Shown: positions 2,521-40,687 of the stretch, piece by piece
Layout of the letters: each line of letters opens with the position of its first letter
How positions within the stretch are numbered: position 1 is the first letter of the stretch
Origin: a virus
Taxonomy: Duplodnaviria; Heunggongvirae; Uroviricota; Caudoviricetes
Reading direction: 5' to 3' (one strand)
Length of the DNA: 40,687 nucleotides
IMG/VR virus record: IMGVR_UViG_2563366891_000016
Program-made: the position numbers and the translations under genes
Notes under the pieces: generated by a model
What the model saw: only the letters and a program-made list of their open reading frames with translations
Told to the model about the DNA's origin: nothing
Database searches by the model: none

Positions 2521-2521
2521 T

Positions 2522-23163: not shown

Positions 23164-23209
23164 TTAGTCTTTTTACGTAATACAGCACGCCGCGTAATGC
23201 GGTTTTTTT

Positions 23210-23231
23210 GTGCCCGCGTTCTGGCGGGCAC
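23210..23231 (+). terminator. Hairpin after the capsid gene (possible partial terminator)
   Basis: 8-bp stem gtgcccgc/gcgggcac immediately before the next RBS aggagg. Confidence 0.35.
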
Positions 23232-23241
23232 AGGAGGTTTT

Positions 23242-23565: not shown

Positions 23566-23972
23566 AAATTCGTCAGGCGCAGACCAGCGCAACCTACATT
23601 CTGCCGGACCCCGGCGAACTGAATAAACGTGTCCTGATCCGCCAGCGGGTGGATATGCCCGCGGATAACTTTGGCGTGGAGCCTCAATACCCGGTTGCGT
23701 TCCGGGCATGGGCGAAGGTTATCCAGACCAGTGCCACCACCTGGCAGGAAACCGCGCAGATCGGAGACGCCATCACCCATTACATCACCATTCGCTACCG
23801 CTGGGGGATCACTGCTGATTATGAGGTGGTCTGTGATGACAGTGTGTACCGGGTGAAACGTCAGCGTGATCTGAACGGGGCGCGGCGCTTTCTGCTGCTG
23901 GAGTGTACGGAACTGGGTGCCGAAGAACAAATGGGAGGACGCAGTGGATCAGACAGCATTTTTACACGTTGA
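23562..23972 (+). CDS. Head-tail adaptor / head closure protein
   Basis: ATGA overlap with upstream gene; position and size fit a head-tail joining protein. Confidence 0.5.
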   Translation: MKIRQAQTSATYILPDPGELNKRVLIRQRVDMPADNFGVEPQYPVAFRAWAKVIQTSATTWQETAQIGDAITHYITIRYRWGITADYEVVCDDSVYRVKRQRDLNGARRFLLLECTELGAEEQMGGRSGSDSIFTR

Positions 23973-24468
23973 TTTCAAACAACCGGAGGAGATGGAGTTT
24001 AACCGTGCCAGGCTCCGAAGGGCATTTGTTCAAATCGGGCGTGTCTATATGCGTGATGCCCGGCGGCTGGTGATGCGACGTGGTCGGTCTGCTCCAGGTG
24101 AAAACCCCGGCTATCAGACCGGACGACTTGCGCGTTCTATAGGTTATTACGTCCCCCGTAAAAGCTCCCGTCGTTCTGGCCTGATGGTCAGGATTTCCCC
24201 TAACCAGAAAAACGGGCAGGGTAACCGGCGTTTTCCTGAAGGTTCTGCGTATTATCCGGCGTTTCTGTATTACGGTGTGCGTCATGCCGCATACGGGATG
24301 AGCAAAAAGGATAAGCGCCAGAAAAAGCAGCATTCATCCCGCTGGCGGCTGGCACCACGTAATAACTTTATGGCTGATGTCATCGACCAGCGTCGTTACT
24401 GGACACAAAAGTTACTGTCCCGTGAGTTACAGCGGTCATTACGTCCTGTAAGAAGGAAAAAAACATGA
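23917..24468 (+). CDS. HK97 gp10-like neck/tail component
   Basis: GTG start overlapping the previous gene; basic 183-aa protein. Confidence 0.45.
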   Translation: MPKNKWEDAVDQTAFLHVDFKQPEEMEFNRARLRRAFVQIGRVYMRDARRLVMRRGRSAPGENPGYQTGRLARSIGYYVPRKSSRRSGLMVRISPNQKNGQGNRRFPEGSAYYPAFLYYGVRHAAYGMSKKDKRQKKQHSSRWRLAPRNNFMADVIDQRRYWTQKLLSRELQRSLRPVRRKKT

Positions 24469-25025
24469 AACTGACTCCTGTTATTGCTGCGCTGCGTGCC
24501 CGCTGCCCGTATTTTGAAAACCGGGTGGCAGGCGCGGCCCAGTTCAAAAATCTGCCGGAGGTCGGAAAGCTGAAACTCCCGGCGGCATATGTGGTACCGG
24601 GGGATGATTCTCCGGGAGAAAACAAAAGCCAGACCGACTACTGGCAGGAGCTGAAAGAGGGTTTCTCCGTGGTTGTCATACTGAGTAACGGGCGTGATGA
24701 GCGCGGTCAGTTTGCCTCGTATGATGTGGTGGACGATGTCCGGCAGATGCTCTTTAAGGCCCTGCTGGGCTGGAACCCGGAAGCGTGCGGTAACCCGATT
24801 ACCTATGACGGCGGCACGCTGCTGGATCTGAATCGTCATGAGCTGATTTATCAGTTCGATTTTTCGGTCATCAGCGAGCTGACTGAAGACGATACCCGCC
24901 AGCAGGATGACCTGAACAGTCTGGATGAACTGCAAACGCTGGCGATTGATGTTGATTATCTTGAGCCCGGTAACGGGCCTGACGGCGATATCGAACATCA
25001 CACCGAAATAACCCTTCCTTCCTGA
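24465..25025 (+). CDS. Tail terminator / tail completion protein (Mu gp37-like)
   Basis: 186-aa protein immediately upstream of the sheath/tube pair. Confidence 0.45.
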   Translation: MKLTPVIAALRARCPYFENRVAGAAQFKNLPEVGKLKLPAAYVVPGDDSPGENKSQTDYWQELKEGFSVVVILSNGRDERGQFASYDVVDDVRQMLFKALLGWNPEACGNPITYDGGTLLDLNRHELIYQFDFSVISELTEDDTRQQDDLNSLDELQTLAIDVDYLEPGNGPDGDIEHHTEITLPS

Positions 25026-25033
25026 GGATCCTC

Positions 25034-25204
25034 ATGTTTGTCAAACCTGTTAAAGGGCGGTCAGTTCCTGATCCTGCCCGCGGCGACCTTTTGCCCGCCG
25101 AAGGGCGAAATGTTGATGAGAACAACTACTGGCTGCGCCGTGAAGCAGCGGGTGATATCCGGCGCGTGAATAAAAAGGTGAACACCGATGACGATAAGCT
25201 TTAA
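25034..25204 (+). CDS. Small hypothetical protein (56 aa)
   Basis: ATG with gagga RBS in the gap before the sheath gene; overlaps the sheath start. Confidence 0.3.
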   Translation: MFVKPVKGRSVPDPARGDLLPAEGRNVDENNYWLRREAAGDIRRVNKKVNTDDDKL

Positions 25205-26684
25205 CACCATTCCGTCGAATACGCTGGTTCCGTTGTTTTATGCGGAAATGGATAACCAGGCGGCGAATACTGCACAGGACAGCCGAGCATCGCTGCTGAT
25301 TGGTCATGCCAATAACGGTGCAGAGATTGTTGCCAACAGTCTGGTACTGATGCCGTCGGCAGACTATGCACGCCAGATTTGTGGTGCGGGAAGTCAGCTG
25401 GCGCGTATGGTCGAGGCTTATCGCCAGACTGACCCGTTTGGCGAGCTGTATGTGATTGCCGTTCCGGAAGCCACAGGCGCGGCGGCAACGGTTACGCTGA
25501 CGGTGACCGGGGCAGCAACCGAAACCGGCACGGTGAATGTGTATGTGGGACGTACCCGCGTGCAGGCACCGGTGACCAACGGCGATAACGTCACGACGAT
25601 TGCCAGCAGTATCAAAGATGCCATCAATGCCGTTCCGGCCCTGCCGTTTACGGCCTCATCTTCGGCAGGCGTGGTCACACTGACCGCGCGTCATAAGGGG
25701 CTTTGCGGGAATGAAATTCCTGTCAGCCTCAATTACTACGGCTTTGGTGGGGGCGAAGTGCTGCCAGCGGGCGTACAGATTGCCGTGGCGACGGGTACCG
25801 CCGGAACGGGTGCTCCGGTTCTCACCGGCGCGGTGGCTGCAATGGCGGATGAGCCGTTTGATTATATCGGCCTGCCGTTCAACGACACGGCCTCCGTTAA
25901 CACGCTGGTGACCGAGATGAACGATACCAGCGGTCGCTGGAGCTATGCGCGTCAGCTGTATGGTCATGTGTATACGGCAAAGACCGGCACGCTGTCAGAA
26001 CTGGTGACCGCAGGTGACCAGTTTAACCAGCAGCACATTACCCTGGCGGGGTACGAAAAAGACACCCAGACGCCTGCCGACGAGCTGGCGGCAAGCCGTA
26101 CCGCCCGCGCAGCGGTGTTTATCCGCAACGATCCGGCACGTCCCACGCAGACCGGTGAGCTGGTGGGTATGCTGCCTGCGCCGAAGGGGAAACGGTTCAC
26201 GATGACCGAACAACAGACCCTGCTGTCTCATGGCGTGGCAACGGCGTATGTCGAAAGCGGGGTACTGCGCATTCAGCGTGATGTCACCACGTACAGGAAA
26301 AACGCTTACGGGGTTGCGGATAACAGCTACCTCGACAGCGAGACGCTGCATACCAGCGCGTATGTACTGCGCAAACTGAAATCCGTCATTACCAGTAAGT
26401 ACGGGCGTCACAAGCTTGCCAGTGACGGTACCCGCTTTGGTCCTGGTCAGGCGATTGTCACCCCGGCGGTGATCAAAGGGGAACTGCTGGCAACCTACCG
26501 TCAGCTCGAGCGTGCGGGGATCGTGGAAAACTACGAACTGTTCAAGCAGTACCTGGTTGTGGAGCGTGATGCCAGCGATCCGAACCGCCTGAACACGCTG
26601 TTCCCGCCTGACTATGTTAACCAGTTGCGTGTCTTTGCCGTGGTTAACCAGTTCCGTCTTCAGTATTCAGAGGAGTCTGCATAA
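25188..26684 (+). CDS. Contractile tail sheath protein (Mu L-like)
   Basis: 498-aa protein followed directly by a 118-aa tube protein. Confidence 0.8.
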   Translation: MTISFNTIPSNTLVPLFYAEMDNQAANTAQDSRASLLIGHANNGAEIVANSLVLMPSADYARQICGAGSQLARMVEAYRQTDPFGELYVIAVPEATGAAATVTLTVTGAATETGTVNVYVGRTRVQAPVTNGDNVTTIASSIKDAINAVPALPFTASSSAGVVTLTARHKGLCGNEIPVSLNYYGFGGGEVLPAGVQIAVATGTAGTGAPVLTGAVAAMADEPFDYIGLPFNDTASVNTLVTEMNDTSGRWSYARQLYGHVYTAKTGTLSELVTAGDQFNQQHITLAGYEKDTQTPADELAASRTARAAVFIRNDPARPTQTGELVGMLPAPKGKRFTMTEQQTLLSHGVATAYVESGVLRIQRDVTTYRKNAYGVADNSYLDSETLHTSAYVLRKLKSVITSKYGRHKLASDGTRFGPGQAIVTPAVIKGELLATYRQLERAGIVENYELFKQYLVVERDASDPNRLNTLFPPDYVNQLRVFAVVNQFRLQYSEESA

Positions 26685-27040
26685 TGGCCCGTATCGGGGG
26701 AACCTGTTATTTCAAAATTGACGGTCAGCAGCTATCGCTGACCGGCGGCATTGAGGTGCCCATGAACAGGACGGTCAATGATGACATCATCGGCCTGGAC
26801 GGCTCAGTGGACCGCAAGGAAACTCACCGTGCGCCTTATGTCAAAGGGACCTTCAAGGTGCCGAAGAATTTTCCGGTGAACAAAATCACCTCGTCTGATG
26901 AGATGACAATCACTGCCGAGCTGGCGAACGGTCAGGTCTATGTACTGTCGTCTGCCTGGCTGCACGGCGAAGCGAACCATAATGCCGAAGAAGGCACGGT
27001 TGATCTTGAGTTCCACGGTGAAGAAGGGGATTACCAGTAA
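26684..27040 (+). CDS. Tail tube protein (Mu M-like)
   Basis: 118 aa, ATG overlapping the sheath stop. Confidence 0.75.
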   Translation: MARIGGTCYFKIDGQQLSLTGGIEVPMNRTVNDDIIGLDGSVDRKETHRAPYVKGTFKVPKNFPVNKITSSDEMTITAELANGQVYVLSSAWLHGEANHNAEEGTVDLEFHGEEGDYQ

Positions 27041-27309
27041 TGAAAGAGCTTGAGTTAAAGAAACCGATTACCGCTCATGGCGAGACACTCTCCGTACTGG
27101 AGTTTGATGAGCCCACCGGGAAAGATGTCCGCGAGCTGGGATATCCCTACCAGATGAATCAGGATGAGTCCGTCAGACTTCTGGCGCATGTGGTATCGAA
27201 ATACATCGTGCGGCTGGCGAAAGTGCCGCAAAGCTCTGTCGACCAGATGTCTCCGGCAGACCTGAATGCAGCGGCGTGGCTTGTGGCCGGTTTTTTCCTC
27301 CAGGCCTGA
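27040..27309 (+). CDS. Tail assembly chaperone (short form)
   Basis: Between tube and tape-measure genes; contains a slippery heptamer near its 3' end. Confidence 0.65.
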   Translation: MKELELKKPITAHGETLSVLEFDEPTGKDVRELGYPYQMNQDESVRLLAHVVSKYIVRLAKVPQSSVDQMSPADLNAAAWLVAGFFLQA

Positions 27310-27458
27310 CGGCTGAATACCTCACTGATCGCTTCTTTGACTGCGCCAGCTACTGGCGCATTAATCCCTTCGAATTGCTGAATATGCCGATCAGTGAAAT
27401 TCCCTTGCTGGTCAGTCAGGCAAACAGGATAGAGCAGGAGAAACGCACACATGGCTGA
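27276..27458 (+). CDS. Tail assembly chaperone -1 frameshift extension
   Basis: -1 frame ORF overlapping the chaperone 3' end and ending just inside the tape-measure gene; slippery site T-TTT-TTC at 27291-27297. Confidence 0.55.
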   Translation: MACGRFFPPGLTAEYLTDRFFDCASYWRINPFELLNMPISEIPLLVSQANRIEQEKRTHG

Positions 27459-29286
27459 ATTTGAGCTTAAGGCGTTGATCACCGGTGTCGACAGGCTTTC
27501 TCCCGCGCTGTCGAAAATGCAAAAGAAAATCCGGGGATTTAAACGCCAGGCGGAAGAAGCGTCACAGGGTGGGCTGGCGCTTGGTGGCGGACTGGCAGCG
27601 GGTCTGACGCTTTCCCTGAAATCTTATGCCGATCAGGAAAACGCCGCCACCGGGCTGAAAGTCGCCATGATGGATGCGAACGGCGAGGTTGGAAAGAGCT
27701 TTCAGGACATCAATAAACTGGCTATTGGCCTGGGTAACCAGCTACCCGGTACAACGGCTGATTTCCAGAACATGATGCAGATGCTGGTGCGTCAGGGGAT
27801 CCCGGCAGAAAACATTCTTGGCGGTGTGGGTAAAGCGACAGCTTATCTTGCGGTACAACTGAAAAAAACACCGGAAGCGGCTGCTGAGTTTGCTGCAAAG
27901 ATGCAGGATGCTACCGGAACGGCGTCAGAAGACATGATGGGGCTGTTCGACACTATCCAGAAGGCGTTTTATCTGGGCGTTGACGATACCAACATGTTGT
28001 CCTTCTTCACTAAAACCAGTTCTGTTCTGAAGATGGTGAATAAGGACGGACTTCAGGCTGCACAGAGCCTTGCCCCTATCAGCGTCATGATGGATCAGAT
28101 GGGGATGAACGGGGAGTCGGCAGGTAATGCCCTGCGAAAAGTTATCCAGTCCGGATTAAGCGTTAAGAAAATCAGGGACGTCAATAAAGTCATGGCCCGC
28201 CAGAAACTCGGGGTGCAGCTCGATTTTACTGACGGCAAAGGGAGTTTTGGCGGTCTTGATAACATGTTTAAGCAACTGGCAAAGCTGCGAAAACTGACCG
28301 ACGTTAAGCGAACAGGTGTACTTAAGGCAATATTTGGTGATGATGCCGAAACCCTTCAGGTGGTCAATGCTCTGATCGATAAAGGAAAGGATGGTTACGA
28401 TCAGATCCAGCAGAAGATGAATAAACAGGCCAGCCTGAATAAACGTGTTCAGGCACAGCTTGGTACGCTGTCCAACCTGTGGGAGGCAATGACGGGGACC
28501 GCAACTAACGGTCTTGCAGCTATTGGCGGCGCATTTTCTGGTGACGCTAAAAATATCACGCAATGGCTGGGGGAGTTGGGGGAAAAATTCACGAAGTTTG
28601 CGGATGAAAATCCCCGGGTTATTCGCGGCGTCGTCGGGCTTGCTGCCGGTCTTGCGATTCTGAAACTGGGATTGATGGGCGTGGGCAGTGCCATCAGTAT
28701 TGTCAGCAGGATCATGTCGATGACGCCGATTGGCATGATTGCGACGGCGATTGCTCTGGCTGCGGGATTAATTATCACTAACTGGGATGTTGTCGGACCT
28801 TATTTCAAGAAGCTCTGGGAAACCATTGGTCCTTATTTTGAGGCTGGCTGGGAACTTCTGAAGAAGGTTTTTGCCTGGTCGCCGCTGGGGATGGTAATCA
28901 ATAACTGGGGACCGGTTGTTAAGTGGTTTCAGGATATGTGGGACAAGCTGAAGCCAATTATTGAGTGGTTTACCGACAGTTCCGGTGACACGGTCGATGC
29001 CATTAACTCTGCGCAGTGGGGCGCGGGTGCTTATGATGCTTATGGGACGGGAATACCGGCACGGGGATACACACCTTATCAGGCGGTGGATCCGGCTCAG
29101 TCAAACAACGCCTCCGATGCCACAGGCCCGAATCCCTTCATGATTAACAAAGCTTCTGCGCCAAAAGTTGATGGTGAGATCAAGGTCTCTTTTGTGAATT
29201 CGCCTCCGGGTATGCGGGTTATGGAAACGCGATCCAGCGGTTTTGATGTCAGCCATGATGTTGGCTATACGCGCTTTGGCAGGTAA
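27451..29286 (+). CDS. Tail tape measure protein
   Basis: 611-aa protein with long helical and Gly/Ala-rich membrane-like segments, after the chaperone pair. Confidence 0.85.
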   Translation: MAEFELKALITGVDRLSPALSKMQKKIRGFKRQAEEASQGGLALGGGLAAGLTLSLKSYADQENAATGLKVAMMDANGEVGKSFQDINKLAIGLGNQLPGTTADFQNMMQMLVRQGIPAENILGGVGKATAYLAVQLKKTPEAAAEFAAKMQDATGTASEDMMGLFDTIQKAFYLGVDDTNMLSFFTKTSSVLKMVNKDGLQAAQSLAPISVMMDQMGMNGESAGNALRKVIQSGLSVKKIRDVNKVMARQKLGVQLDFTDGKGSFGGLDNMFKQLAKLRKLTDVKRTGVLKAIFGDDAETLQVVNALIDKGKDGYDQIQQKMNKQASLNKRVQAQLGTLSNLWEAMTGTATNGLAAIGGAFSGDAKNITQWLGELGEKFTKFADENPRVIRGVVGLAAGLAILKLGLMGVGSAISIVSRIMSMTPIGMIATAIALAAGLIITNWDVVGPYFKKLWETIGPYFEAGWELLKKVFAWSPLGMVINNWGPVVKWFQDMWDKLKPIIEWFTDSSGDTVDAINSAQWGAGAYDAYGTGIPARGYTPYQAVDPAQSNNASDATGPNPFMINKASAPKVDGEIKVSFVNSPPGMRVMETRSSGFDVSHDVGYTRFGR

Positions 29287-29309
29287 TGAAAAATTAATCT
29301 GTTAATGAG

Positions 29310-29331
29310 TCCCACTCCGGTGGGATTTTTT
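29310..29331 (+). terminator. Intrinsic terminator after the tape-measure gene
   Basis: Stem tcccac/gtggga with loop tccg followed by a T-run. Confidence 0.5.
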
Positions 29332-29346
29332 ATGTACGGAGTTTAT

Positions 29347-30675
29347 ATGACGTGGAAAGACAGACTTCAGGACGCGTCATTTCGCGGTGTGCCGTTTAAG
29401 GTTGAAGAAGAAAGTGCGGGAACCGGTCGTCGTGTGGAAACGCACGAATACCCGAACCGCGACAAACCCTATACCGAAGACCTGGGGAAAATCACTTTCC
29501 GCCCGTCCATCACAGCTTATGTGGTGGGAGATGACTGCTTTGACCAGCGCGATCGCCTGATTGACGCGCTGAATAAACCCGGTCCCGGCACGCTTGTCCA
29601 TCCGACTTACGGTGAGCTGAAAGTCTGTGTTGACGGAGAGGTTCGGGTCAGCACATCGAAGAGTGAAGGGCGTATTGTCCGCTTTGACCTGAAGTTTGTC
29701 GAAGCGGGAGAACTCTCTTACCCCACTTCAGGTGCGGCGACGGCGCAGACGCTGATGTCATCCTGTTCTGCACTGGATGACTGCATCAGTGACAGCTTCA
29801 GTGGTTTCAGTATCGATGGCGTGGCAGATTTTGTGCAGAACGACGTCGTCGGTAATGCCAGCACAATGCTTGGGTATGTTTCTGATGCGATGAAAGTGGT
29901 GGATTCTGCCGTATCGGATGCCGCCAGGCTGTTGCAGGGGGATATCTCGGTACTTCTGCCGCCGCCATCGTCAGGCAAAAATTTCGTTGAGCAGGTGCAG
30001 AAAATGTGGCGTACCGGGAAACGCCTTTATGGTAACGCCAGCGACCTGGTCACCATGATCAAAACGCTTTCCGGTGTCAGCCTCGGCAGCGATCTGCAAC
30101 CGCGCGGCGTCTGGAAAACGGACAGTAAAACCACCGCCACGGCGACGCAGCAGCGTAACGTGGTTGCCAGCACCCTTCGTACGACCGCAATCAGCGAAGC
30201 GGCGTATGCCGTCACACGATTGCCTGCGCCCACAACTTCCGCGGTGATGCAGAATGCCACAGTGGGGCAGTCAACAACACCCGCGCAGAGCACCGGCTGG
30301 CCTTCTGTCACGCATCCGGCACTGAACAATGCACCGGCGGTGAAAAACACGGTTGACCTGCCAACGTGGGAAGAACTGACCGACATTCGCGACACACTGA
30401 ATACGGCAATTGATAAGGAGTTGTCCCGTACAACCAGTGATGCGCTGTTTCTGGCGCTGCGCCGGGTGAAAGCAGATCTGAATGCGGATATCAACACGCG
30501 CCTTGAACAGTCTGCACGGATCATTCAGCGCACGCCGGATGAGGTTTTACCCGCGCTGGTGCTGGCGGCGACCTGGTTTGATAACGCGGCGCGTGACGCG
30601 GACATTATCCGGCGTAATGCCATTACGCATCCCGGCTTTGTGCCGGTGATCCCTCTGAAGGTGCCAGTGCAATGA
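29347..30675 (+). CDS. DNA circularization protein (Mu N-like)
   Basis: ATG 29347 with ggag RBS; N-terminal MTWKDRLQDASFRGVPF as recalled for Mu N-type proteins. Confidence 0.65.
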   Translation: MTWKDRLQDASFRGVPFKVEEESAGTGRRVETHEYPNRDKPYTEDLGKITFRPSITAYVVGDDCFDQRDRLIDALNKPGPGTLVHPTYGELKVCVDGEVRVSTSKSEGRIVRFDLKFVEAGELSYPTSGAATAQTLMSSCSALDDCISDSFSGFSIDGVADFVQNDVVGNASTMLGYVSDAMKVVDSAVSDAARLLQGDISVLLPPPSSGKNFVEQVQKMWRTGKRLYGNASDLVTMIKTLSGVSLGSDLQPRGVWKTDSKTTATATQQRNVVASTLRTTAISEAAYAVTRLPAPTTSAVMQNATVGQSTTPAQSTGWPSVTHPALNNAPAVKNTVDLPTWEELTDIRDTLNTAIDKELSRTTSDALFLALRRVKADLNADINTRLEQSARIIQRTPDEVLPALVLAATWFDNAARDADIIRRNAITHPGFVPVIPLKVPVQ

Positions 30676-31751
30676 ACGATAACGTCACGCTACGGGTAAA
30701 TGGCCGGGAGTGGAATGGCTGGACATCGGTGCGCATCGGTGCCGGTGTTGAACGACTGGCGCGGGATTTCAGTGTGGAGATCACCCGCCAGTGGCCGGGA
30801 GATGAGGGTATTACCACGCTTCAGCCGCGCATTAAAAACGGTTCAAAAGTGGAAGTGCTGATTGGTGATGAGCTGGTGATCACCGGCTGGGTGGAGGCGA
30901 CGCCCGTTCGTTACGATGCCCGTTCGGTCAGCACCGGTATTGCCGGACGTAGTCTGACCGCTGATCTGATTGACTGTGCAGCCGAACCGACACAGTTTAA
31001 CGGACGATCGCTGGTACAGATTGCGCAGGCGCTTGCTGCGCCTTTCGGCATTGAGGTGGTGAACAGCGGTGCGCCGTCGGGTGTTATTCCTGATGTCCAG
31101 CCTGATCACGGTGAAACGGTGATTGAGGTGATCAACAAAATACTTGGTCAGCAGCAGGCGCTGGCTTACGACGACCCGCACGGCAGGCTGGTGATTGGCG
31201 GTATTGGCTCAACGCGGGCACATACCGCGCTGGTACTCGGGGAAAACATCCTTTCCTGCGATACGGAGAAGAGTATCCGGGAGCGGTTTTCTGTTTACCA
31301 GGTGGCGGGGCAGCGTGCCGGAAACGATGATGATTTCGGTGAGGCCACCACCACCGCGCTGCGGGCCCGCACAGAGGACGCATTTATTGCCCGTTACCGT
31401 CCGATGTATATCAGGCAGACAGGGCAGGCTACGGGGGCAGGCTGTATTGCGCGTGCTGACTTTGAAGCCCGGCAACGGGCGGCGCGGACGGATGAAACCA
31501 CCTATGTGGTGCAGGGCTGGCGACAGGGTAACGGTACGCTGTGGCAGCCCAACCAGCGGGTGATTGTCTTCGATCCGGTCTGTGGTTTCGACAATACCGA
31601 ACTGCTTGTCTCGGAAGTCACGTTTACTCAGGACCAGAACGGCACCCTGACGGAAATCCGTGTCGGCCCGCCTGATGCTTATCTGCCTGAACCCGAAGCC
31701 CCCGGCGCGCGGAAAAAGAAAAAAGCCAGAGTACAGGAGGACCCGTTCTGA
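30672..31751 (+). CDS. Baseplate hub protein (Mu P-like)
   Basis: 359 aa, overlapping start; conserved position in a Mu-type baseplate cluster. Confidence 0.6.
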   Translation: MNDNVTLRVNGREWNGWTSVRIGAGVERLARDFSVEITRQWPGDEGITTLQPRIKNGSKVEVLIGDELVITGWVEATPVRYDARSVSTGIAGRSLTADLIDCAAEPTQFNGRSLVQIAQALAAPFGIEVVNSGAPSGVIPDVQPDHGETVIEVINKILGQQQALAYDDPHGRLVIGGIGSTRAHTALVLGENILSCDTEKSIRERFSVYQVAGQRAGNDDDFGEATTTALRARTEDAFIARYRPMYIRQTGQATGAGCIARADFEARQRAARTDETTYVVQGWRQGNGTLWQPNQRVIVFDPVCGFDNTELLVSEVTFTQDQNGTLTEIRVGPPDAYLPEPEAPGARKKKKARVQEDPF

Positions 31752-32299
31752 TGAGGACGATTGAAGCCATGCAGCGACAACTCCTCGGCCTGATTGGGCG
31801 GGCCGTGGTGAAAAGCATCAGTGCCGCCACGAAATGTCAGACCGTGGATGTGTCCCTGATTGCCGGTGAACCCAAAGCCGGGGTTGAACATCTTGAACCC
31901 TACGGTTTTACCGCAAGGGCAAACAGCGGTGCGGAAGCGGTGGTGTTGTTTCCGGATGGCGACCGTTCTCATGCGGTGGTTGTTACGGTGTCGGACCGTC
32001 GCTACCGCCTGAAAGGGCTGCAGACGGGTGAGGTGGCTGTCTATGACGATCAGGGGCAGTCCGTGACGCTGACCCGGGAGGGGATCGTGGTGGACGGTGC
32101 AGGTAAAACGATCACGTTTCGCAATGCGCCTAAGGCACGTTTTGAAATGGACCTGGAAGTGACCGGACAGGTGAAAGACCTGTGCGACTCCGGCGGCACC
32201 ACCATGTCAGCGATGCGGCTTGCCTATAACGGGCATCGTCACAGAGAGAACGGTCAGGGCAGTAACACCGACAAACCTGATAAAGCGATGGAGGCATGA
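31751..32299 (+). CDS. Baseplate assembly protein V (spike)
   Basis: 182 aa in gpV position. Confidence 0.6.
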   Translation: MRTIEAMQRQLLGLIGRAVVKSISAATKCQTVDVSLIAGEPKAGVEHLEPYGFTARANSGAEAVVLFPDGDRSHAVVVTVSDRRYRLKGLQTGEVAVYDDQGQSVTLTREGIVVDGAGKTITFRNAPKARFEMDLEVTGQVKDLCDSGGTTMSAMRLAYNGHRHRENGQGSNTDKPDKAMEA

Positions 32300-32724
32300 T
32301 GGAAGTGTGGCTGACGGTGAACGGTAAACGCACCTGCGCCAGCGCACCGCTGGATCCGCTGACCCGCGCCGTGGTGATTTCCCTGTTTACCTGGCGGCGG
32401 GCGGAGCCTGATGACAATGCCGACGTCCCGATGGGATGGTGGGGGGATACCTGGCCTGCGGTACAGAATGACCGTTACGGCTCCCGACTGTGGCTGCTTC
32501 AACGCAGCAAACTGACCAATCAACTGGTGCAGACGGTAAGGGGGTATATCCGCGAATGCCTGCAATGGATGATTGATGACGGCGTGGTGTCCCGTATTGA
32601 TCTGGATATCCGCCGCACCGGGATTAATGAACTGGGTAACAGTATCACTCTCTGGCGTCGTGACGGACCGGTAATGATTTCTTTTGATGATCTGTGGAGT
32701 GCGATAACGCATGGCGAACAGTGA
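32296..32724 (+). CDS. Baseplate protein (Mu gp46-like)
   Basis: 142 aa, overlapping genes in the baseplate cluster. Confidence 0.55.
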   Translation: MMEVWLTVNGKRTCASAPLDPLTRAVVISLFTWRRAEPDDNADVPMGWWGDTWPAVQNDRYGSRLWLLQRSKLTNQLVQTVRGYIRECLQWMIDDGVVSRIDLDIRRTGINELGNSITLWRRDGPVMISFDDLWSAITHGEQ

Positions 32725-33769
32725 ATTTCAGCGCCCGACGCTGGCAGAAAATATCAGTATGCTCCGTAACGATTTATTCGCCAGGCTGGACGTCAGCGAC
32801 ACGCTCCGGCGCATGGATGAAGACGTGCGGGCAAAGGTGTATGCGGCGGCGCTGCATACGGTTTACGGTTACATCGATTATCTGGCAATGAACATGCTGC
32901 CTGACCTGTGCGATGAGTCCTGGCTGGCGCGACATGCTGCGATGAAACGGTGTCCGCGCAAGGGGGCCACGGCTGCCAGCGGGTATATGCGCTGGGAAGG
33001 TGTCAGCGATGGCCTGAAGGTGACCGCCGGGAGTGTTATTCAGCGCGATGACCTGGTTCAGTACATGGCAACTGCCGATGCAACCAGCTCCGGTGGTGTC
33101 CTGCGCGTGCCGATCGCATGCTCAAATGCAGGCGCGGTCGGTAACGCTGACGACGGTTCGGCATTAATCCTGGTCACGCCGGTGAATGGTCTGCCGTCTT
33201 CCGGTGTGGCTGACACCCTGACAGGCGGATTTGATACTGAAGAGCTGGAAACGTGGCGCGCCCGCGTCATTGAGCGGTATTACTGGACGCCGCAGGGCGG
33301 GGCTGACGGGGACTATGTCGTCTGGGCTAAAGAAGTGCCCGGCATTACCCGCGCATGGACATACCGTCACTGGATGGGAACGGGAACTGTCGGTGTGATG
33401 ATTGCCAGCAGTGACCTGATTAATCCCATTCCGGAAGAATCAACGGAAACGGCGGCAAGACAACATATCGGGCCACTGGCCCCGGTGGCAGGCTCTGATT
33501 TGTATGTGTTCAGGCCGGTGGCACATACGGTGGATTTTCATATCCGCGTGACGCCGGACACACCGGAAATACGGGCTGCCATCACCGCGGAGTTGCGTTC
33601 GTTCCTGCTGCGTGATGGTTATCCGCAGGGAGAACTGAAGGTATCGCGTATCAGTGAGGCGATTTCCGGTGCGAACGGGGAATACAGCCATCAGTTGCTT
33701 GCACCGGCAGACAATATCTCCATTGCAAAAAATGAACTGGCGGTTCTGGGGACGATTTCATGGACGTGA
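32711..33769 (+). CDS. Baseplate J-like protein (Mu gp47-like)
   Basis: 352 aa in the conserved baseplate position. Confidence 0.65.
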
Positions 33770-34344
33770 CAAACGATGATTACATCCGTCTGTTGTCGGC
33801 ACTGTTGCCCCCCGGTCCGGCGTGGTCAGCCAGCGATCCGGCGATTGCCGGTGCGGCACCGTCATTAACCCGCGTTCATCAGCGTGCGGATGCCCTGATG
33901 CGGGAGCTGGATCCGCGCACCACCACCGAACTGATAAACCGCTGGGAGCGTCTGTGCGGCCTGCCGGATGAATGTATTCCGGCAGGGACACAGACCCTTC
34001 GCCAGCGTCAGCAACGACTGGATGCGAAGGTTAACCTGGCGGGCGGCATCAATGAGGATTTTTACCTTGCACAGCTTGCTGCCCTGGGCAGACCAGACGC
34101 CACCATCACGCGATACGACAAAAGCACGTTCACCTGCTCATCGGCCTGTACTGACGCGGTGAATGCGCCGGAATGGCGGTATTACTGGCAGGTCAACATG
34201 CCAGCCGCCACCAACACCACCTGGATGACATGTGGCGATCCCTGTGATTCCGCACTGCGTATCTGGGGCGACACCGTTGTCGAGTGTGTGCTTAACAAAC
34301 TCTGCCCGTCGCATACCTACGTAATTTTTAAATATCCGGAGTAA
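33760..34344 (+). CDS. Tail protein (Mu gp48-like)
   Basis: 194 aa between baseplate J and the tail fiber. Confidence 0.55.
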
Positions 34345-34347
34345 TTC

Positions 34348-35352
34348 ATGCATCGTATAGACACGAAAACCGCGCAGAAGGATAAGTTCGGCGCGGGTAA
34401 GAACGGTTTTACCCGTGGTAACCCCCAGACCGGCACGCCTGCTACCGATCTGGATGATGACTACTTTGACATGTTGCAGGAAGAGCTTTGTGGCGTGGTG
34501 GAGGCATCCGGTGCCAGCCTGGAGAAGGGGCGAAACGACCAGTTGCTTACCGCGCTTCGTGCGCTGCTGTTAAGCCGCAAGAATCCGTTTGGTGATATCA
34601 AATCGGATGGCACGGTGAAAACGGCTCTCGAAAACCTTGGTTTGGGAGATGGAACAGGAAGACTCATTGCAGTGTACCGGATTGACACATCCCGGCAAAT
34701 TACACTGCCGAAAGATGCCAGGTTTGTTGTGGCAGATATGATTGGTGGCGGAGGCGGCGGTGGCAGTAACTCCACGACCGTACAACCCGGATATGCGTCA
34801 GCAGGGCAGGGCGGGAATTCAGGTAGCCGTGTGGTAGCAAAATTCACAGTTGATGCCAGTCAGAAAATTAATATTACTATTGGCGCAGGTGGTGCGGGGG
34901 GCGTGACAACTCCCGCAACCGGAGCTAATGGAAGTGACGGTGGGGCTACGATTATCGACGGTATTACAGCTACTGGTGGGCGAGGTGGAGCTAAGGGGGC
35001 AGCATTTAATGTTCTGCCAACCGGCGGGCCTACAGCGATTCAGAATGCTAATAACACCATTCCTGGAGGAGCAGAATTGATAGCACAGCATCTCGGGTAT
35101 GGTGGAAGCTCTGGATTTCTGTTCTCGGATAAAAATGCGATTGGCGGGAAAGGGGCTGACTCTGAATTCGGAGTGGGCGGTGTGGCAGTCGGAATTAGCT
35201 CAGGAGTCAATGCATCGACGGGAAAAAATGCCACAGGTAATGGCTCTGGCGGAAGCGGCGCGGTCTCTATTTATGGATCAGGGTCTACCGGGGTGTCTAT
35301 GTCGGGTGGAGCAGGGGCTGACGGTCTGGCGATTTTGTGGGTATACGGCTAA
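34348..35352 (+). CDS. Tail fiber protein with glycine-rich repeat domain
   Basis: Conserved fiber-type N-terminus ([21 protein letters not shown]...) then a long G/S/A/T-rich region; followed by a Tfa gene. Confidence 0.75.
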
Positions 35353-35747
35353 TGAACAGATACGCATTAATTAAAAACAATATTGTTGTTAATATCGTTG
35401 TTTGGGATGGCGCAGGAGATATGTTTGCCGATTTTAAGGCAGTTAATATCTCTGGTGTTGCAGTTGATATTGGATGGATCTATGACGGAAATAATTTCAC
35501 AGCCCCCCCCGAACCTGAGAAAACTAAAGAACAGTTAATCCAGGAAGCAGAACTCGAAAAAGAAGGGCGCATACGTGCTGCAAATGATTTTATTAACAGC
35601 AAGCAGTGGCCCGGTAAAGCGGCTATTGGTCGTCTGAAAGGTGACGAACTGGAGCAATATAATTTGTGGCTGGATTATCTGGACGCACTGGATGCTGTAG
35701 ATACTTCAACTGCACCAGAAATAGACTGGCCTCAGCAATCAGAATAA
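35352..35747 (+). CDS. Tail fiber assembly protein (Tfa-like)
   Basis: TAATG overlap with the fiber stop; [20 protein letters not shown] is a typical Tfa N-terminus. Confidence 0.7.
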   Translation: MNRYALIKNNIVVNIVVWDGAGDMFADFKAVNISGVAVDIGWIYDGNNFTAPPEPEKTKEQLIQEAELEKEGRIRAANDFINSKQWPGKAAIGRLKGDELEQYNLWLDYLDALDAVDTSTAPEIDWPQQSE

Positions 35748-35783
35748 AAATATGGGGCAGCGCCCCATATTTCTCGTTGACTG

Positions 35784-36830
35784 TCATATTAAAGCTTTTC
35801 GTAAAAGTGTCTTGCCGATTAAAACACCTCTTCGCTCTACAAGCTTGTGCGCAAAATAACAAACTATAAATAACAATAATAATATTTGAATGTTACTATT
35901 GATGTATTTAATTCCGATTTTATTAACTACTAATAACAAAGAGTCCCAAATCCAGTTATGAAATAAGTACACAGCATAAGTCATTTCAGATAGCAAATTG
36001 CATGCTTTGGATTCAATGAATCTATCTTTAAATAACCACGAACAAAGAAAAATAACAGTTCCTGTGAATGCGTAGTTGTAGTGCCCCCAGAATGGGTTTA
36101 TTTTTTCAATGAGAGATAAATGAAGATAGAACATAGTTACGATGGATATTAAAGCAACAATCCGATTAACTAACTTATGCTCTGTAAGGTACACTACTAC
36201 ACCTATAAACAAAAATGGCGTATACAAGGTGAAGTAAGCATTATGAAAATCCTTCGCTACAGGGAAAGGATTAATGGTGGATATAAATAATGATATAAAA
36301 AGTAGTAGAACTGTTAAAACGTTTCCTTTATTTATGAGTCCGACTTTTTTAACCAAACCCATAAACACATAGAACAGCATTTCTATTCTTAACGTCCATT
36401 CAACACCAGCCAATGAAAGAGGTGTGTTAAAGAAATCGCCTATAAGCAATAATCTAGGTATTATTATGCTCAGAGGTGGAATGTTTCCACCATTATAGTA
36501 TTGGATCAACATTTCAGCTAAAACAGCAAAAATATAGAGTGGGTATATTCTAAATATTCTTTTTAAATAAAATTCAAAAGTTGCTTCTTTTTGTAGTACG
36601 TGGGTGATGATGTACCCTGAAACAAGAAAGAAGATCACAACCCCCATTGCACCACCGAAACTGGCATCTGCTAGTAATCCGTAAAAAAGCCTCAGTGTAA
36701 AGTGGTTACTTGGATCGTTCGCCAACGAAGATAAATCTTTGTTGAACTTATGACCTAACACCACAAGGGAGAACGCAATTACACGCATGTAATCTAAAAA
36801 AAGAATTCGACGATTGTTCATGATTTTCAT
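35784..36830 (-). CDS. Acyltransferase family 3 integral membrane protein (O-antigen acetyltransferase-like)
   Basis: AT-rich gene; polytopic membrane protein with FLDYMRVIAFSLVVLGH near the N-terminus (OafA/Oac-type conserved R and H); sits between tail genes and the integrase, as O-antigen modification genes do in Sf6/SfV-type phages. Confidence 0.7.
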   Translation of the reverse strand: MKIMNNRRILFLDYMRVIAFSLVVLGHKFNKDLSSLANDPSNHFTLRLFYGLLADASFGGAMGVVIFFLVSGYIITHVLQKEATFEFYLKRIFRIYPLYIFAVLAEMLIQYYNGGNIPPLSIIIPRLLLIGDFFNTPLSLAGVEWTLRIEMLFYVFMGLVKKVGLINKGNVLTVLLLFISLFISTINPFPVAKDFHNAYFTLYTPFLFIGVVVYLTEHKLVNRIVALISIVTMFYLHLSLIEKINPFWGHYNYAFTGTVIFLCSWLFKDRFIESKACNLLSEMTYAVYLFHNWIWDSLLLVVNKIGIKYINSNIQILLLLFIVCYFAHKLVERRGVLIGKTLLRKALI

Positions 36831-36905
36831 TTAATTTATTGAGTTGTGATCATTTTATAGCAACTAACCATTGTTAGCTATGCTGTCACCTTGTAAACAA
36901 GATGG

Positions 36906-37232
36906 TTATGTGACATCACCGTCGATCCAGTCCTCCCACCACTGCATCATTTCTCTGCGCTTATCGAGATACTGAGCATGGTTATAAATCCAACGCACAG
37001 ATCCGCCGTTGGCATGCGCCAGTTGAGCTTTAATGACTTTGCGACGCAACTCAATAATCAAGAGCATGGAGTCAATCATCCAATCATCAATTGATCGAGA
37101 ATTGAAGTGGTTGTTGAGACAAAACTGAGACACACAAAGCCTTGCACTTGATTGCAAGGCTTTGGGCTCTTCTGTGGGGGCTACATGTCTGAAGAGCGTT
37201 GTGCCGTATTTGTGACATGCATATAACAACAT
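36906..37232 (-). CDS. Hypothetical protein; real product may be the C-terminal ~57 aa
   Basis: N-terminal half has poor composition; C-terminal ELRRKVIKAQLAHANGGSVRWIYNHAQYLDKRREMMQWWEDW looks protein-like. Confidence 0.3.
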   Translation of the reverse strand: MLLYACHKYGTTLFRHVAPTEEPKALQSSARLCVSQFCLNNHFNSRSIDDWMIDSMLLIIELRRKVIKAQLAHANGGSVRWIYNHAQYLDKRREMMQWWEDWIDGDVT

Positions 37233-37290
37233 AATGCATCAACTTTCTGTTTGTGCCATCAGCTATGGCTTAGTGAATGCAGTTAATGCT

Positions 37291-37345
37291 TGCTAGAATG
37301 ATTGGTGCTACAGATTCGTAATGCGAAGGTTGTAGGTTCGTCCCC
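37291..37345 (+). other. tRNA-Thr-like fragment (pseudo-tRNA / relic attachment core)
   Basis: ATTCGTAATGCGAAGGTTGTAGGTTCG at 37314-37340 matches the anticodon-arm to T-arm segment of tRNA-Thr(CGU) as recalled, but the flanks cannot form an acceptor stem or T-stem. Confidence 0.4.
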
Positions 37346-37496
37346 CTTTTCAGTACTACCTAAATCAATAAGTTACCTAACTTTCAGTTATGACAGAAAG
37401 ATATATATGCCAAGTAAAGTATAGAGAAACTGTCAAAGCAATAAAGGCTGGTGCTCCGTGTGTGGCGGCTGATGTATAGACATTTATGCAGATGAA

Positions 37497-37523
37497 ACGA
37501 AAAAAAGCCCGCATCTGCGGGCT
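37497..37523 (-). terminator. Intrinsic terminator on the minus strand
   Basis: Stem agcccgca/tgcgggct with 2-nt loop, followed on the minus strand by a run of 7 U. Confidence 0.65.
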
Positions 37524-37777
37524 TTCATGTCATTAGGGCACTGCGGCTCCTTTGCGTATCCTTTTTGTTTCCTCACAGTCTGGTCGGTGCCCTGCTGAGA
37601 CCAATAACTTCCAGTTTTTGTTAGTGTTATCCTTACACCGTCCAATCATGATTGGTGGGCTGGCGGGAGTTGAAACTGCAGGCACGTCGTATGCAAGAAC
37701 ATGCTGTGGCTGGCTGCTTTACTTTCGATAGTGCGAGTATTGAATGATTTCCAGCCGTTACCGATTTTACGTGTTAA

Positions 37778-38026
37778 TTAGTGAACAAACCACTCGTCAG
37801 CAGATTCCCAGGTATCTTTCAGAGTCTCCTGAACAAAAGTTTTTACAGAATCCTTATCTGCGGTGCGTGTAACAGAAAGGCCATCGTTGCTGGTGGCTTT
37901 TACGATCACCTCTACATCATCATAACGTTTACTGATGCGTCGGGTTAATTCTTCCTTTAACGCGTCCACAGCACCGGTTGGCATTTTAGTCATTTTTTCT
38001 TTGGCTATGCAGATTTCAATACGCAT
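37778..38026 (-). CDS. DinI-like protein
   Basis: 82 aa with MRIEICIAK start and [10 protein letters not shown] end, matching the DinI family pattern. Confidence 0.65.
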
Positions 38027-38087
38027 AAAAGTCCCTCTGTACTGTGTTTGTATACAGTGTTATTTTTAACTGTATGGATAAACAGTG

Positions 38088-39185
38088 TCAAGAGGTCTTA
38101 TTTCTGCTCCTTTGGAGCTCTTCAAAACGATTATGTAAAGATTTCGGATACAGTTCGGTATATACCTGCCATAGCACGTTTAATGAACGATGCCCTGTAA
38201 CTTGGGCGACTTCCTCAATACTAAAACCAGCCTCAAATAAGCGACTTGCCCCTTCTCTACGCAAATCATGGTATCGCAGATCTTTAATACCTAATTTGCT
38301 TCTTACCCTCTGAAATCCCGCAGTAACAGAAGTGCTGTTATATGGAAAAATGAATTCCGATTTTTGGGGCTGTCGTTGGACGATATCCCAGGCTTCCCCA
38401 AGCAAGGCTACTTTCATGTGGTTGCCTTCCTTTTTGCGTGGATCTTTCCTGTCTCTTACGAGTATAGATTTTTGTTCTTGGTCGAGATCTTCCCATCGTA
38501 ACCGGCATACTTCTCCGATTCGCATACAGGACCACACAGAAAATTTGAGGATATCAACGAACGGAATTTTTGAGCATTTATGAGTAGATCGTTGTTGAAG
38601 GCCTTCAATGAGCATGTCCAGTTCATCAGATGCTGGTCTACGATTACGACGGTTTGATTTACCAATCAAACCAAGTTTAAGTAGATATGGACGAGCGCTT
38701 TTCGCTGGGTTTGATGTGTAATTAATTCCGTATACAGGTTTGGCTGCATCCAGAACACTGCCAAGATAACTAACATCGTGGCTGACTGTTGCTGGACCTG
38801 CACCAGCGTTGTTTCTTAGCCTGCAATGTTCAATTACGTCATTTTCGGTCAGTTCGGATAGTTTGATCGCGGAGATGTCACTATCCATAAGCAGTTCCAG
38901 CACATATCTTTTAGTACGGCCTGCTTTACCTCCGGCATTTGGGTCATTTAAATATTTGTGTAGTAAGTCACGGACTGTAAGTCCGTCAACTGCATTTGAT
39001 GATGGAATGCCATATAGATCTAATTCCATCACTTTCTGTGTACCCCATGTTTTGGCATGGGCATGTTTAGGGAATGTTTTGCTTTCCCTGTAAGTGATAA
39101 CACCTTTTTCTTTGATAATCACATTACAGCGATAGCGTGGTGTGCCATCGGATTTTAGTCGTTTCTCTATGTTATAGTACGCCAT
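38088..39185 (-). CDS. int: Tyrosine site-specific integrase (dusA-associated type)
   Basis: 365-aa protein with a candidate catalytic R...HxxR...Y arrangement (RIGE, HDLRR, C-terminal Y); encoded directly next to attR and the phage-supplied dusA 5' end. Confidence 0.85.
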   Translation of the reverse strand: MAYYNIEKRLKSDGTPRYRCNVIIKEKGVITYRESKTFPKHAHAKTWGTQKVMELDLYGIPSSNAVDGLTVRDLLHKYLNDPNAGGKAGRTKRYVLELLMDSDISAIKLSELTENDVIEHCRLRNNAGAGPATVSHDVSYLGSVLDAAKPVYGINYTSNPAKSARPYLLKLGLIGKSNRRNRRPASDELDMLIEGLQQRSTHKCSKIPFVDILKFSVWSCMRIGEVCRLRWEDLDQEQKSILVRDRKDPRKKEGNHMKVALLGEAWDIVQRQPQKSEFIFPYNSTSVTAGFQRVRSKLGIKDLRYHDLRREGASRLFEAGFSIEEVAQVTGHRSLNVLWQVYTELYPKSLHNRFEELQRSRNKTS

Positions 39186-39204
39186 TACACGACCTCGTTA
39201 TTTC

Positions 39205-39240
39205 GGGTTCCCATAAAATGTGGGAACCTGTGCGGGAACC
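39205..39240. promoter_or_regulatory. Repeated (T/C)GGGAACC motifs between int and dusA (putative integrase arm sites and/or dusA promoter)
   Basis: gggttccc (inverted) at 39205-39212, tgggaacc at 39221-39228, cgggaacc at 39233-39240; a further copy tgggaacc at 1477-1484 just inside attL. Confidence 0.4.
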
Positions 39241-39273
39241 TAACGCGAGAAAAATAGCCTGAAATGTTCAAAA

Positions 39274-40311
39274 ATGCACGATAATCCTGAAACACAGAAA
39301 ACTAATCAAACCAGCGTGATGCCTGAAAAAACTGGCGCTTACTGGAGTTCCCGGTTTAGCATTGCTCCTATGCTCGACTGGACGGACAGACATTGCCGCT
39401 ATTTCTTGCGTCTGCTTTCCCGCAATACGTTGCTGTATACCGAAATGGTGACTACAGGGGCGATTATTCACGGTAAAGGTGATTACCTGGCGTACAGTGA
39501 AGAAGAACATCCGGTAGCATTGCAACTGGGCGGTAGCGATCCGGCGGCGCTGGCGCAGTGTGCAAAGCTGGCAGAAGCGCGCGGATATGATGAGATCAAC
39601 CTGAATGTCGGCTGCCCGTCTGACCGGGTGCAGAACGGCATGTTTGGGGCGTGTCTGATGGGTAATGCGCAGCTGGTTGCCGACTGCGTGAAAGCGATGC
39701 GCGATGTGGTGTCGATTCCGGTGACGGTGAAAACGCGTATTGGCATCGACGACCAGGACAGCTATGAATTTCTCTGCGATTTCATCAACACCGTTTCCGG
39801 CAAAGGCGAGTGTGAGATGTTCATCATCCACGCACGTAAAGCCTGGCTTTCGGGGTTAAGCCCGAAAGAAAACCGTGAAATCCCGCCGCTCGATTATCCG
39901 CGTGTGTATCAACTGAAGCGTGACTTTCCGCATCTGACAATGTCGATTAACGGTGGCATCAAGTCGCTGGAAGAGGCTAAAGCGCATTTGCAACATATGG
40001 ATGGCGTGATGGTCGGGCGCGAAGCGTATCAGAATCCGGGTATTCTGGCGGCGGTAGACCGAGAGATCTTTGGTTCCTCGGATACCGATGCCGATCCGGT
40101 GGCGGTAGTGCGCGCCATGTATCCGTACATTGAGCGTGAACTCAGCCAGGGGACGTATCTTGGCCATATTACCCGGCATATGCTGGGCTTGTTCCAGGGT
40201 ATTCCTGGCGCGCGGCAGTGGCGGCGTTATTTAAGTGAAAATGCCCATAAAGCGGGTGCAGACATTAATGTGCTGGAACACGCGCTCAAACTGGTGGCGG
40301 ATAAGCGTTAA
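39274..40311 (+). CDS. dusA: tRNA-dihydrouridine synthase A, with phage-supplied 5' end
   Basis: 345-aa ORF with the DusA TIM-barrel sequence as recalled ([13 protein letters not shown] ... NLNVGCPS ... VKTRIG); the first ~35 codons belong to the prophage arm. Confidence 0.9.
39320..39377 (+). other. attR crossover region within the dusA 5' end
   Basis: Identical blocks shared with attL (atgcctgaaaaaactg, atgctcga); homology ends at 39377 on this side and at 1423 on the attL side. Confidence 0.55.
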
Positions 40312-40340
40312 CTTTTCACCAAAAAATAGTCAAATTCACC

Positions 40341-40369
40341 ACGCCCTGCGCACCGTCGCGGGGCGTTTT
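40341..40369 (+). terminator. Intrinsic terminator after dusA
   Basis: Stem acgccctgcg/cgcggggcgt (one mismatch) followed by tttt. Confidence 0.5.
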
Positions 40370-40393
40370 GCTGTTAAATCAATAGATTATTTT

Positions 40394-40408
40394 TGGCATG
40401 ATTCTTGT
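40394..40408 (+). promoter_or_regulatory. Sigma-54-type promoter-like element upstream of pspG
   Basis: TGGCAT-N5-TTGT resembles the -24/-12 consensus TGGCAC-N5-TTGC, about 37 bp before the pspG ATG. Confidence 0.4.
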
Positions 40409-40444
40409 AATGCCAGCAAGAGATTTCATATTTGGGAGAGCATC

Positions 40445-40687
40445 ATGCTGGAACTACTTTTTGTGATTGGCTTTTTTGTCATGTTGATGGTCACCGGCGT
40501 TTCGTTGCTGGGCATTATCGCCGCGCTGGTTGTGGCGACGGCCATTATGTTCCTCGGCGGTATGCTGGCATTGATGATTAAGTTGCTGCCGTGGTTACTC
40601 CTGGCGATTGCGGTGGTGTGGGTTATTAAGGCGATTAAAGCACCAAAAGTGCCGAAATATCAGCGTTATGACCGCTGGCGTTACTAA
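40445..40687 (+). CDS. pspG: Phage shock protein G (80 aa inner-membrane protein)
   Basis: ATG at 40445 with gggagag RBS; 80-aa hydrophobic protein MLELLFVIGFFVML..., immediately downstream of dusA. The 150-aa track ORF is an upstream overextension. Confidence 0.8.
   Translation: MLELLFVIGFFVMLMVTGVSLLGIIAALVVATAIMFLGGMLALMIKLLPWLLLAIAVVWVIKAIKAPKVPKYQRYDRWRY

Follow-up and report, generated by a model that had tools for sequence, protein, structure and literature searches.

A probable vestigial thrW-type attP among relics of integration modules in a dusA-inserted Escherichia coli prophage

Introduction

The phages that integrate at thrW, among them SfI, SfII, SfV, SfX, P22, HK446, HK542, mEpX2 and mEp213, carry an attP whose core derives from this tRNA-Thr gene, beginning one base ahead of the anticodon loop and reaching the 3' terminus of thrW; a 46-bp attP core, ATTCGTAATGCGAAGGTCGTAGGTTCGACTCCTATTATCGGCACCA, is common to SfI, SfII, SfV, SfX and P22 (PMC3636060). 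Displaced pieces of the same gene also occur outside functional phages. In E. coli K-12 the thrW pseudogene ptwF, at the right end of the cryptic prophage CP4-6, is a displaced 3' thrW segment at a prophage border, and in the tandem thrW array of strain 81EVA the core joins arms that come from different phages. Prophages at dusA show a different arrangement, with the integrase beside a replaced dusA 5' end and with imperfect repeats (Farrugia et al. 2015, PMC4482086). Finally, several att sequences are often co-localised in E. coli prophages (Nakamura et al., PMC8112680), as in the case of attB-in-PP_1/2/3, which lie near the end of lambdoid prophages. Displaced tRNA fragments, hybrid tandem att sites and multiple prophage att sequences are all known already.

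Here we analyze a stretch of 40,687 nucleotides (IMG/VR virus record IMGVR_UViG_2563366891_000016; hereafter the window) that holds an E. coli prophage with a short tRNA-Thr-like relic next to its integration module. The relic shares its core origin with the attP of the thrW phages. Like ptwF it is a displaced 3' thrW segment, but ptwF keeps an intact 46-bp core at the thrW locus, whereas the relic is decayed and lies inside a dusA prophage with phage sequence on both sides. As in the 81EVA array, arms of different phages appear to be combined at its core, and as with the attB-in-PP sites, several att sequences lie near one prophage end. Those sites have a proposed chromosomal attB origin and are occupied by phages, whereas the relic has the anatomy of an attP, is decayed and is unoccupied. 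The region is a new, unusually legible instance of a known feature and not a new kind of element; it is an ordinary product of phage mosaicism.

Results

An active dusA module in a mosaic prophage

By homology, this is a mosaic prophage, and it occupies the 5' end of E. coli dusA. Its present integration module comprises:

37778–38026, minus strand: DinI-like gene (Pfam DinI, E=1.6e-19), the first gene of an mEp460-type module
38088–39185, minus strand: functional-looking dusA-type tyrosine integrase (Pfam Phage_integrase; 98% identical to the mEp460 integrase region)
39271–39377, plus strand: attR, the phage-supplied dusA 5' end (dusA coding sequence 39274–40311)
1317–1423: attL, the displaced original dusA 5' end and partner of attR

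The two att sites are imperfect direct repeats, identical at 88 of 107 positions (82%) with a 16-bp exact block. The dusA gene at 39274–40311 is recognized by the Pfam Dus model (E=8e-105), and the dusA-pspG flank is 100% identical to that of E. coli EFF60. An integrase by dusA, replacement of the 5' end and imperfect repeats are thus all present, as in other DusA-associated integrase elements, and the original prediction, which had assigned a dusA-type integrase to this prophage and placed its insertion in dusA, is supported by the paired attL and attR.

Two parts of the window (1317–9000 and 37673–39300) match two abutting segments of the siphovirus mEp460 at 97.6–97.8% identity. These segments overlap by ~30 bp at the att point and hold DinI, int, attP, the early-left genes and the immunity region; the DinI region is 97.8% identical to mEp460 and 97.9% to SKA5. 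The virion genes (17663–34649) are instead 97–98% identical to those of the myoviruses SfV, SfII, SfI and SfIV. SKA5, an isolated phage, likewise combines an mEp460-like early region with an SfV-like virion, and has an invertase/tail-fibre cassette in place of the acyltransferase and relics described below. Neither mEp460 nor SKA5, which carry the same dusA module as the window, has a thrW or ssrA fragment upstream of DinI; the relics are baggage beside the module and not part of it.

A thrW-derived core in an attP context

To the left of the dusA module, separated from it by the sequences treated in the next section, we read the following features:

37104–37313, plus strand: P arm of a thrW-type attP (HK446/mEpX2/81EVA type), ~200 bp
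37314–37358, plus strand: thrW-derived att core relic, 45 nt, with its 3' third decayed
37359–37387, minus strand: 14-nt spacer and cognate integrase stub (stop codon and last 4 codons)

We compared the fragment with two thrW references, the annotated (RefSeq) tRNA-Thr gene beside proA in E. coli 81EVA (L003 525–600) and the published 46-bp attP core (PMC3636060). Positions 37314–37340 (plus strand), ATTCGTAATGCGAAGGTTGTAGGTTCG, match the thrW-derived core at 26 of 27 positions, with one mismatch, and none of 100 dinucleotide-preserving shuffles of the window gave a comparable match. This span opens with the final base of the anticodon stem's 5' strand, crosses the anticodon loop, that stem's 3' strand and the variable loop, and reaches into the T loop, bearing out the claim of a 27-bp match from anticodon arm to T arm. 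The interval first proposed, 37291–37345, takes in the core but begins 23 nt too far to the left, inside the P arm.

Preservation of the core is uneven. Core positions 1–27 carry a single change, whereas positions 28–46 (37341–37358, 18 bases) are identical at only 11 of 19 positions, with 8 changes that include a 1-nt deletion, so that the relic agrees with the functional thrW core at 37 of 46 positions overall. T-stem pairing is broken in the decayed part and, as its sequence stands, the relic core could not rebuild thrW on integration. The contrast between the two parts could reflect residual function or gene conversion instead of simple neutral decay. In 81EVA, thrW at attL (L003 555–600) has a phage-supplied 3' half with a compensatory change in the T stem (GGAGG...CCTCT in place of GTAGG...CCTAT), which indicates that functional attP cores are not strictly identical across thrW phages although pairing is kept; in the window relic that pairing is lost.

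No tRNA gene was found by ARAGORN across the window, and Rfam returned no tRNA in 36800–38100 even at E≤10; neither program called a tmRNA on the relics either. To the left of 37314 the sequence is P arm and the tRNA 5' half is missing; the fragment therefore lacks the complete cloverleaf of acceptor, D, anticodon and T arms that a functional tRNA-Thr has. That it cannot fold into a tRNA, as had been proposed, agrees with all of these results. Weak Rfam matches to STnc350 and Leu_leader correspond only to a terminator hairpin at 37504–37525. A second thrW core, the reciprocal junction of a nested integration, was sought in the window, where the core is present as a single copy.

What surrounds the core is attP-like on both sides. 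Over the 200 nt to its left, the P arm is 89–92% identical to the HK446 attP and the 81EVA attR when a 10-bp deletion near 37297/37298 is excluded, as opposed to about 41–42% identity to the SfV-type arm, and BLASTN of the P-arm region against known attP arms gave E values of 1e-81 to 1e-95. The whole of 37104–37388 is collinear with the annotated attP of HK446, HK542, mEpX2, mEp213 and mEp043 at 83–85% identity (gaps counted); it aligns equally well, with gaps counted, with SfX, and the same 83–85% holds for the attR and hybrid att junctions of 158 complete E. coli genomes. By its arm the site belongs with the thrW-type attP of the P22/SfV/SfX/HK446 integrase family. In functional relatives the integrase gene ends 14 nt past the core, and the window retains both this spacer and the HK446-type integrase stop codon (37373–37375), followed by four codons, L-K-V-R, that correspond to L-N-V-R or L-N-A-R in the translated annotated 3' ends of the 81EVA and HK446 integrases. 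Where the integrase reading frame would go on there is an in-frame stop, and BLASTN homology to HK446 stops at 37388.

Compared with a functional thrW attP, the site thus lacks int and xis except for the stop and four codons, carries the 10-bp P-arm deletion and has an arm that is not SfV's. Its core is not the 3' 46 nt of thrW from which the tRNA is rebuilt on integration, and no cognate int (or xis) directly follows it, the dusA-type gene being the only intact integrase in 33000–40687. We therefore put at roughly 0.7 the probability that the tRNA-Thr-like fragment is the core of a vestigial thrW-type attP, with no tRNA role and no cognate integrase in this prophage. This reading, drawn from sequence comparison, agrees with the proposal that a thrW-type att site gave rise to the fragment, now non-functional, given its alignment to HK446-type attP, to SfX and to the published core. 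The proposed correspondence to the position of attP in SfV is also borne out: SfV has the order gtrV-gtrB-gtrA, core, int, xis, and in the window an acyltransferase gene is followed by the relic.

Two specific sources were considered and rejected. K-12 ptwF has an intact 46-bp core and a different flank. With SfV's own attP only the hairpin portion of the arm, and the core, align, and the arm type differs.

The P arm contains a hairpin at 37135–37164 with a perfect 12-bp stem (CAAAGCCTTGCA/TGCAAGGCTTTG), which is kept in otherwise unrelated P arms (SfV type, HK446 type and the decayed family described below); a hairpin of this type also lies directly downstream of the HK633 integrase gene. It was missed by a simple terminator scan and may be an integrase-transcript terminator or a sib-like element.

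Traces of other integration modules on both sides

Two features lie to the left of the P arm:

35784–36830, minus strand: O-antigen-type acyltransferase, a lysogenic-conversion moron (Pfam Acyl_transf_3, E=3.6e-23)
36906–37034, minus strand: intS', the last 42 codons and stop of an IntS-type (argW) integrase, a truncated pseudogene end

The acyltransferase is 98% identical to the copy in an argW prophage of strain HCP4S3_I4 and to the BEN2908 copy. This HCP4S3_I4 prophage, SfV-like and integrated at argW, has the order tail fibre assembly gene, acyltransferase, intS, tRNA-Arg, and window positions 30300–37025 (late genes and acyltransferase) are collinear with it at 98.05% identity. In BLASTP, intS' is identical at 38 of 42 positions to residues 344–385 of the HCP4S3_I4 IntS. 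The 98% identity to the argW prophage stops inside intS, at 37025–37034. The late/acyltransferase block thus derives from an argW-type phage, and the integration module last displaced on this side was IntS/argW and not thrW. A chimeric 108-aa open reading frame (36906–37232, minus strand), in which no Pfam domain was found, draws its first 66 codons from unrelated P-arm DNA and its last 42 from the IntS C-terminus.

Between the thrW-type integrase stub and DinI lie three further features:

37389–37652, no strand assigned: flank X, joined directly to the integrase stub; a non-coding 260-bp arm from an ssrA-type attP
37653–37679, minus strand: relic of an att core from the 3' end of ssrA (tmRNA), TGGTGG-GCTGGCGGGAGTTGAAACTGC
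37681–37770, no strand assigned: conserved element of about 85–90 bp, 89% identical to the annotated HK633 attP

Flank X is 83% identical to a region of phage LLS whose first 6 matching nt hold the gene 30 stop codon and which continues across a non-coding stretch to the annotated ssrA attP, and 88.7% identical to the end of a prophage in MS21324 that abuts ssrA, where ssrA is annotated and confirmed by Rfam at 295.6 bits. The LLS region homologous to 37377–37731 is annotated as non-coding except for the gene 30 stop codon. The core relic aligns to the MS21324 ssrA 3' end and to the LLS "tmRNA pseudogene/attP", retaining ~25 of 28 nt of the ssrA 3' end (reverse complement) with a 1-nt deletion as in EC9682 and D217-5. 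Its 21-mer matches with 2 mismatches, and 1 of 100 shuffles was as good. Sequence past the annotated crossover region has been replaced, and arm and core relic stand here without the cognate integrase that an LLS-like ssrA-type attP would have. Homology to LLS and MS21324 ends at 37672–37674 and homology to mEp460 and SKA5 begins at 37669–37673, both inside the ssrA core, so this second mosaic boundary, too, coincides with an att core. The DinI/int unit is separated from the relics by a strong bidirectional rho-independent terminator hairpin at 37504–37525 (AAAGCCCGCA/TGCGGGCTTT).

The conserved element together with the 3' part of DinI (37681–37835) is 79–83% identical to the K-12 ykgJ-ecpE region (L021 2722–2939; 82.6% over 155 bp), the reported origin of the prophage-borne attB-in-PP_2 (Nakamura et al. 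2021, PMC8112680). The element at 37681–37770 is thus a candidate counterpart of attB-in-PP_2, a match made through ykgJ-ecpE homology and not through the published 96-bp sequence. The K-12 ykgJ-ecpE region itself looks like an old prophage end with a dinI remnant.

On these alignments, the relic stack is made up of traces of argW, thrW and ssrA modules and an att stretch related to ykgJ-ecpE, all beside the active dusA module.

A family of decayed thrW att relics

Window positions 37314–37770 recur at 88–92% identity in 19 complete E. coli genomes and 2 metagenome contigs. These copies have in common a decayed 3' third of the core, the 1-nt deletion, the integrase stub and the junction to the following DNA. 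Their left arm is of SfV type, and homology to the window breaks at the core. They occur in several chromosomal settings: beside DinI at the yecD end of a lambdoid prophage in EC9682, Combat2C1 and N47, directly abutting ssrA in MS21324, and in the thrW-yagP region in D217-5. Identity of the window to functional attP types and to this decayed family changes along the site:

Left arm: 89–92% to functional attP types (HK446/81EVA type only); about 41% to the decayed family
Core positions 1–27: 96% to functional attP types; 81–85% to the decayed family
Core positions 28–46: 40% to functional attP types; 85–90% to the decayed family
Far right flank (76–175 nt past the core start): 7–30% to functional attP types (no real homology); 88–92% to the decayed family

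The window site therefore looks like a hybrid or else, within an old family of thrW att relics that have lost their integrase, like the one that has decayed least. The core bases do not pin down exactly where a crossover fell: the window has T18 in common with D217-5 yet lacks the A16 and GG24-25 that the decayed family has.

The window-type hybrid was found in none of 5,426 complete E. coli genomes, the 19 with the decayed family all having the SfV-type arm. A scan of IMG/VR yielded one contig with the hybrid (L010), which is the same prophage at 99.67% identity, and a metagenome scan yielded 3 contigs, one of which is again the same prophage (L017, 99.6%) and 2 of which are of the EC9682/MS21324 type; outside the window the hybrid thus occurs only in these two copies of the same prophage. 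In species-representative genomes there were no matches to the decayed core with its integrase stub. With no species-representative genome and only 3 metagenome contigs matched, the collections searched may miss closer relatives; they yielded no intermediate that pairs a window-type P arm with an intact integrase beside flank X.

D217-5 has two thrW-type att junctions 2.2 kb apart behind an SfV-like prophage (L012 5877–6453 and 8072–8261). The first has a decayed core and a window-like flank, and the second an intact core followed by a K-12-type chromosomal flank; between them lies a small remnant island encoding a 380-aa hypothetical protein.

Discussion

How the relics may have accumulated

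The attP of a lambdoid phage would mark the border between the late/moron region and int, and a new integration module would be expected to join at or just beyond the old core, so that what remains of the earlier site, its P arm and core, persists as a layer. With attP at this border, successive module replacements would leave older P arms and cores as a series of layers. The 3' part of a tRNA-derived core would serve only to rebuild the tRNA on integration and would thus be free to decay once the integrase is lost or the site has become internal.

On this model, a thrW-type integrase would first have been deleted and its stub fused to the arm of an ssrA-type attP. This fusion is probably old, because the junction is common to prophages at three other loci. 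Next, a DinI-bearing end would have taken the place of the ssrA module, joining at the ssrA core. The left arm of the thrW site, along with core positions 1–27, would have been exchanged with a functional HK446-type attP, or have stayed closer to one. Finally, the block together with the mEp460-like dusA/early region would have been joined to the argW-type SfV-like late/acyltransferase module, with the breakpoint inside intS. The lineages from which we infer this order of events are few and about 90% identical. An integrase may have mediated the arm exchanges, or they may have arisen as a by-product of tandem integration (as in the 81EVA array) or taken place through short homologies.

Alternative explanations

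One alternative holds that the site is not inert. The 27 well-preserved nucleotides might still act as a secondary attB-in-prophage or pseudo-attP for the thrW-type integrases of co-resident phages, which would open a route to prophage-in-prophage integration or Int-mediated module exchange and account for the homology breaks at att cores. Several observations are in line with such activity: core positions 1–27, the presumed site of crossover, are 96% conserved as against 40% identity to functional attP for positions 28–46; one and the same decayed right half carries an SfV-type P arm in some copies and an HK446-type arm in others, with the join exactly at the core; mEp460 homology starts and LLS/MS21324 homology ends inside the ssrA core relic; an SfV-like prophage lies immediately to the left of such a decayed core in D217-5; and E. 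coli prophages are known to bear attB sites at which other phages integrate (PMC8112680). Yet the site is unoccupied by any phage in the window and in both further copies, exchange of arms at a core would also follow automatically from tandem thrW integration and subsequent deletion, as the 81EVA array illustrates, and 27 nt kept in one lineage could be due to chance or to a short gene-conversion tract. We consider a site that is still live improbable. A broader version of the idea holds that decayed att cores remain recombination substrates and that co-resident integrases shuffle integration and late modules at these fossils, the 27 nt being live. It draws on the coincidence of two mosaic boundaries within a 900-bp stretch with the thrW core and the ssrA core, and we regard it as tentative and rather doubtful.

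A simpler history had also been proposed, in which the relic is the ancestral att site of this prophage itself: an SfV-like phage at thrW, with the order gtr/oac-attP-int-xis, would have undergone a single swap to a DinI-int(dusA)-dusA 5' module, its attP then decaying in place. The position of the relic fits the location of attP in SfV (PMC3636060), the virion module is 97–98% identical to those of the thrW-integrating phages SfV, SfII, SfI and SfIV, and a stub of the cognate integrase is present. The junctions, however, tell against it. The stub is fused to an ssrA-type attP arm and not to DinI, and both this junction and the core decay are common, at about 90% identity, to prophages at yecD, at ssrA and in the thrW region; the loss of the thrW-type integrase accordingly predates the arrival of the dusA module and is unconnected with it. 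That module begins at 37673 and is 98% identical to mEp460, which, like SKA5, is free of relics. The P arm is not of SfV type (about 42% identity, as against 92% to its own type), and the late/acyltransferase block next to it, which matches an argW prophage at 98% identity, runs out in a truncated intS. The single swap thus appears quite improbable: of the original prediction, the origin of the fragment, its lack of function, its position and the insertion in dusA stand, and the history does not.

That the fragment is short and represents only the 3' part of a tRNA might suggest chance similarity, or a piece of host thrW captured by aberrant excision in the manner of specialized transduction, but this is hardly credible given 0 of 100 shuffles matching, ~280 bp of collinear homology to annotated phage attP on both sides, a right flank 93% identical to phage integrase 3' ends as opposed to 71% to the chromosomal flank of K-12 ptwF, and no proA-side or thrW 5'-half sequence.

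Implications

A vestigial attP that arrived with its neighbours, the reading we favour, makes this region a compact and readable record of serial replacement of integration modules in one E. coli prophage. It also illustrates that a relic beside an integrase need not be the ancestral site of that phage, since relics move together with the modules beside them. Annotators should count tRNA- and tmRNA-like fragments in prophages neither as prophage borders nor as host tRNA pseudogenes. If fossil att cores do prove to be recombination-active, they would provide a concrete mechanism for the exchange of modules between phages and for the nesting of prophages within prophages.
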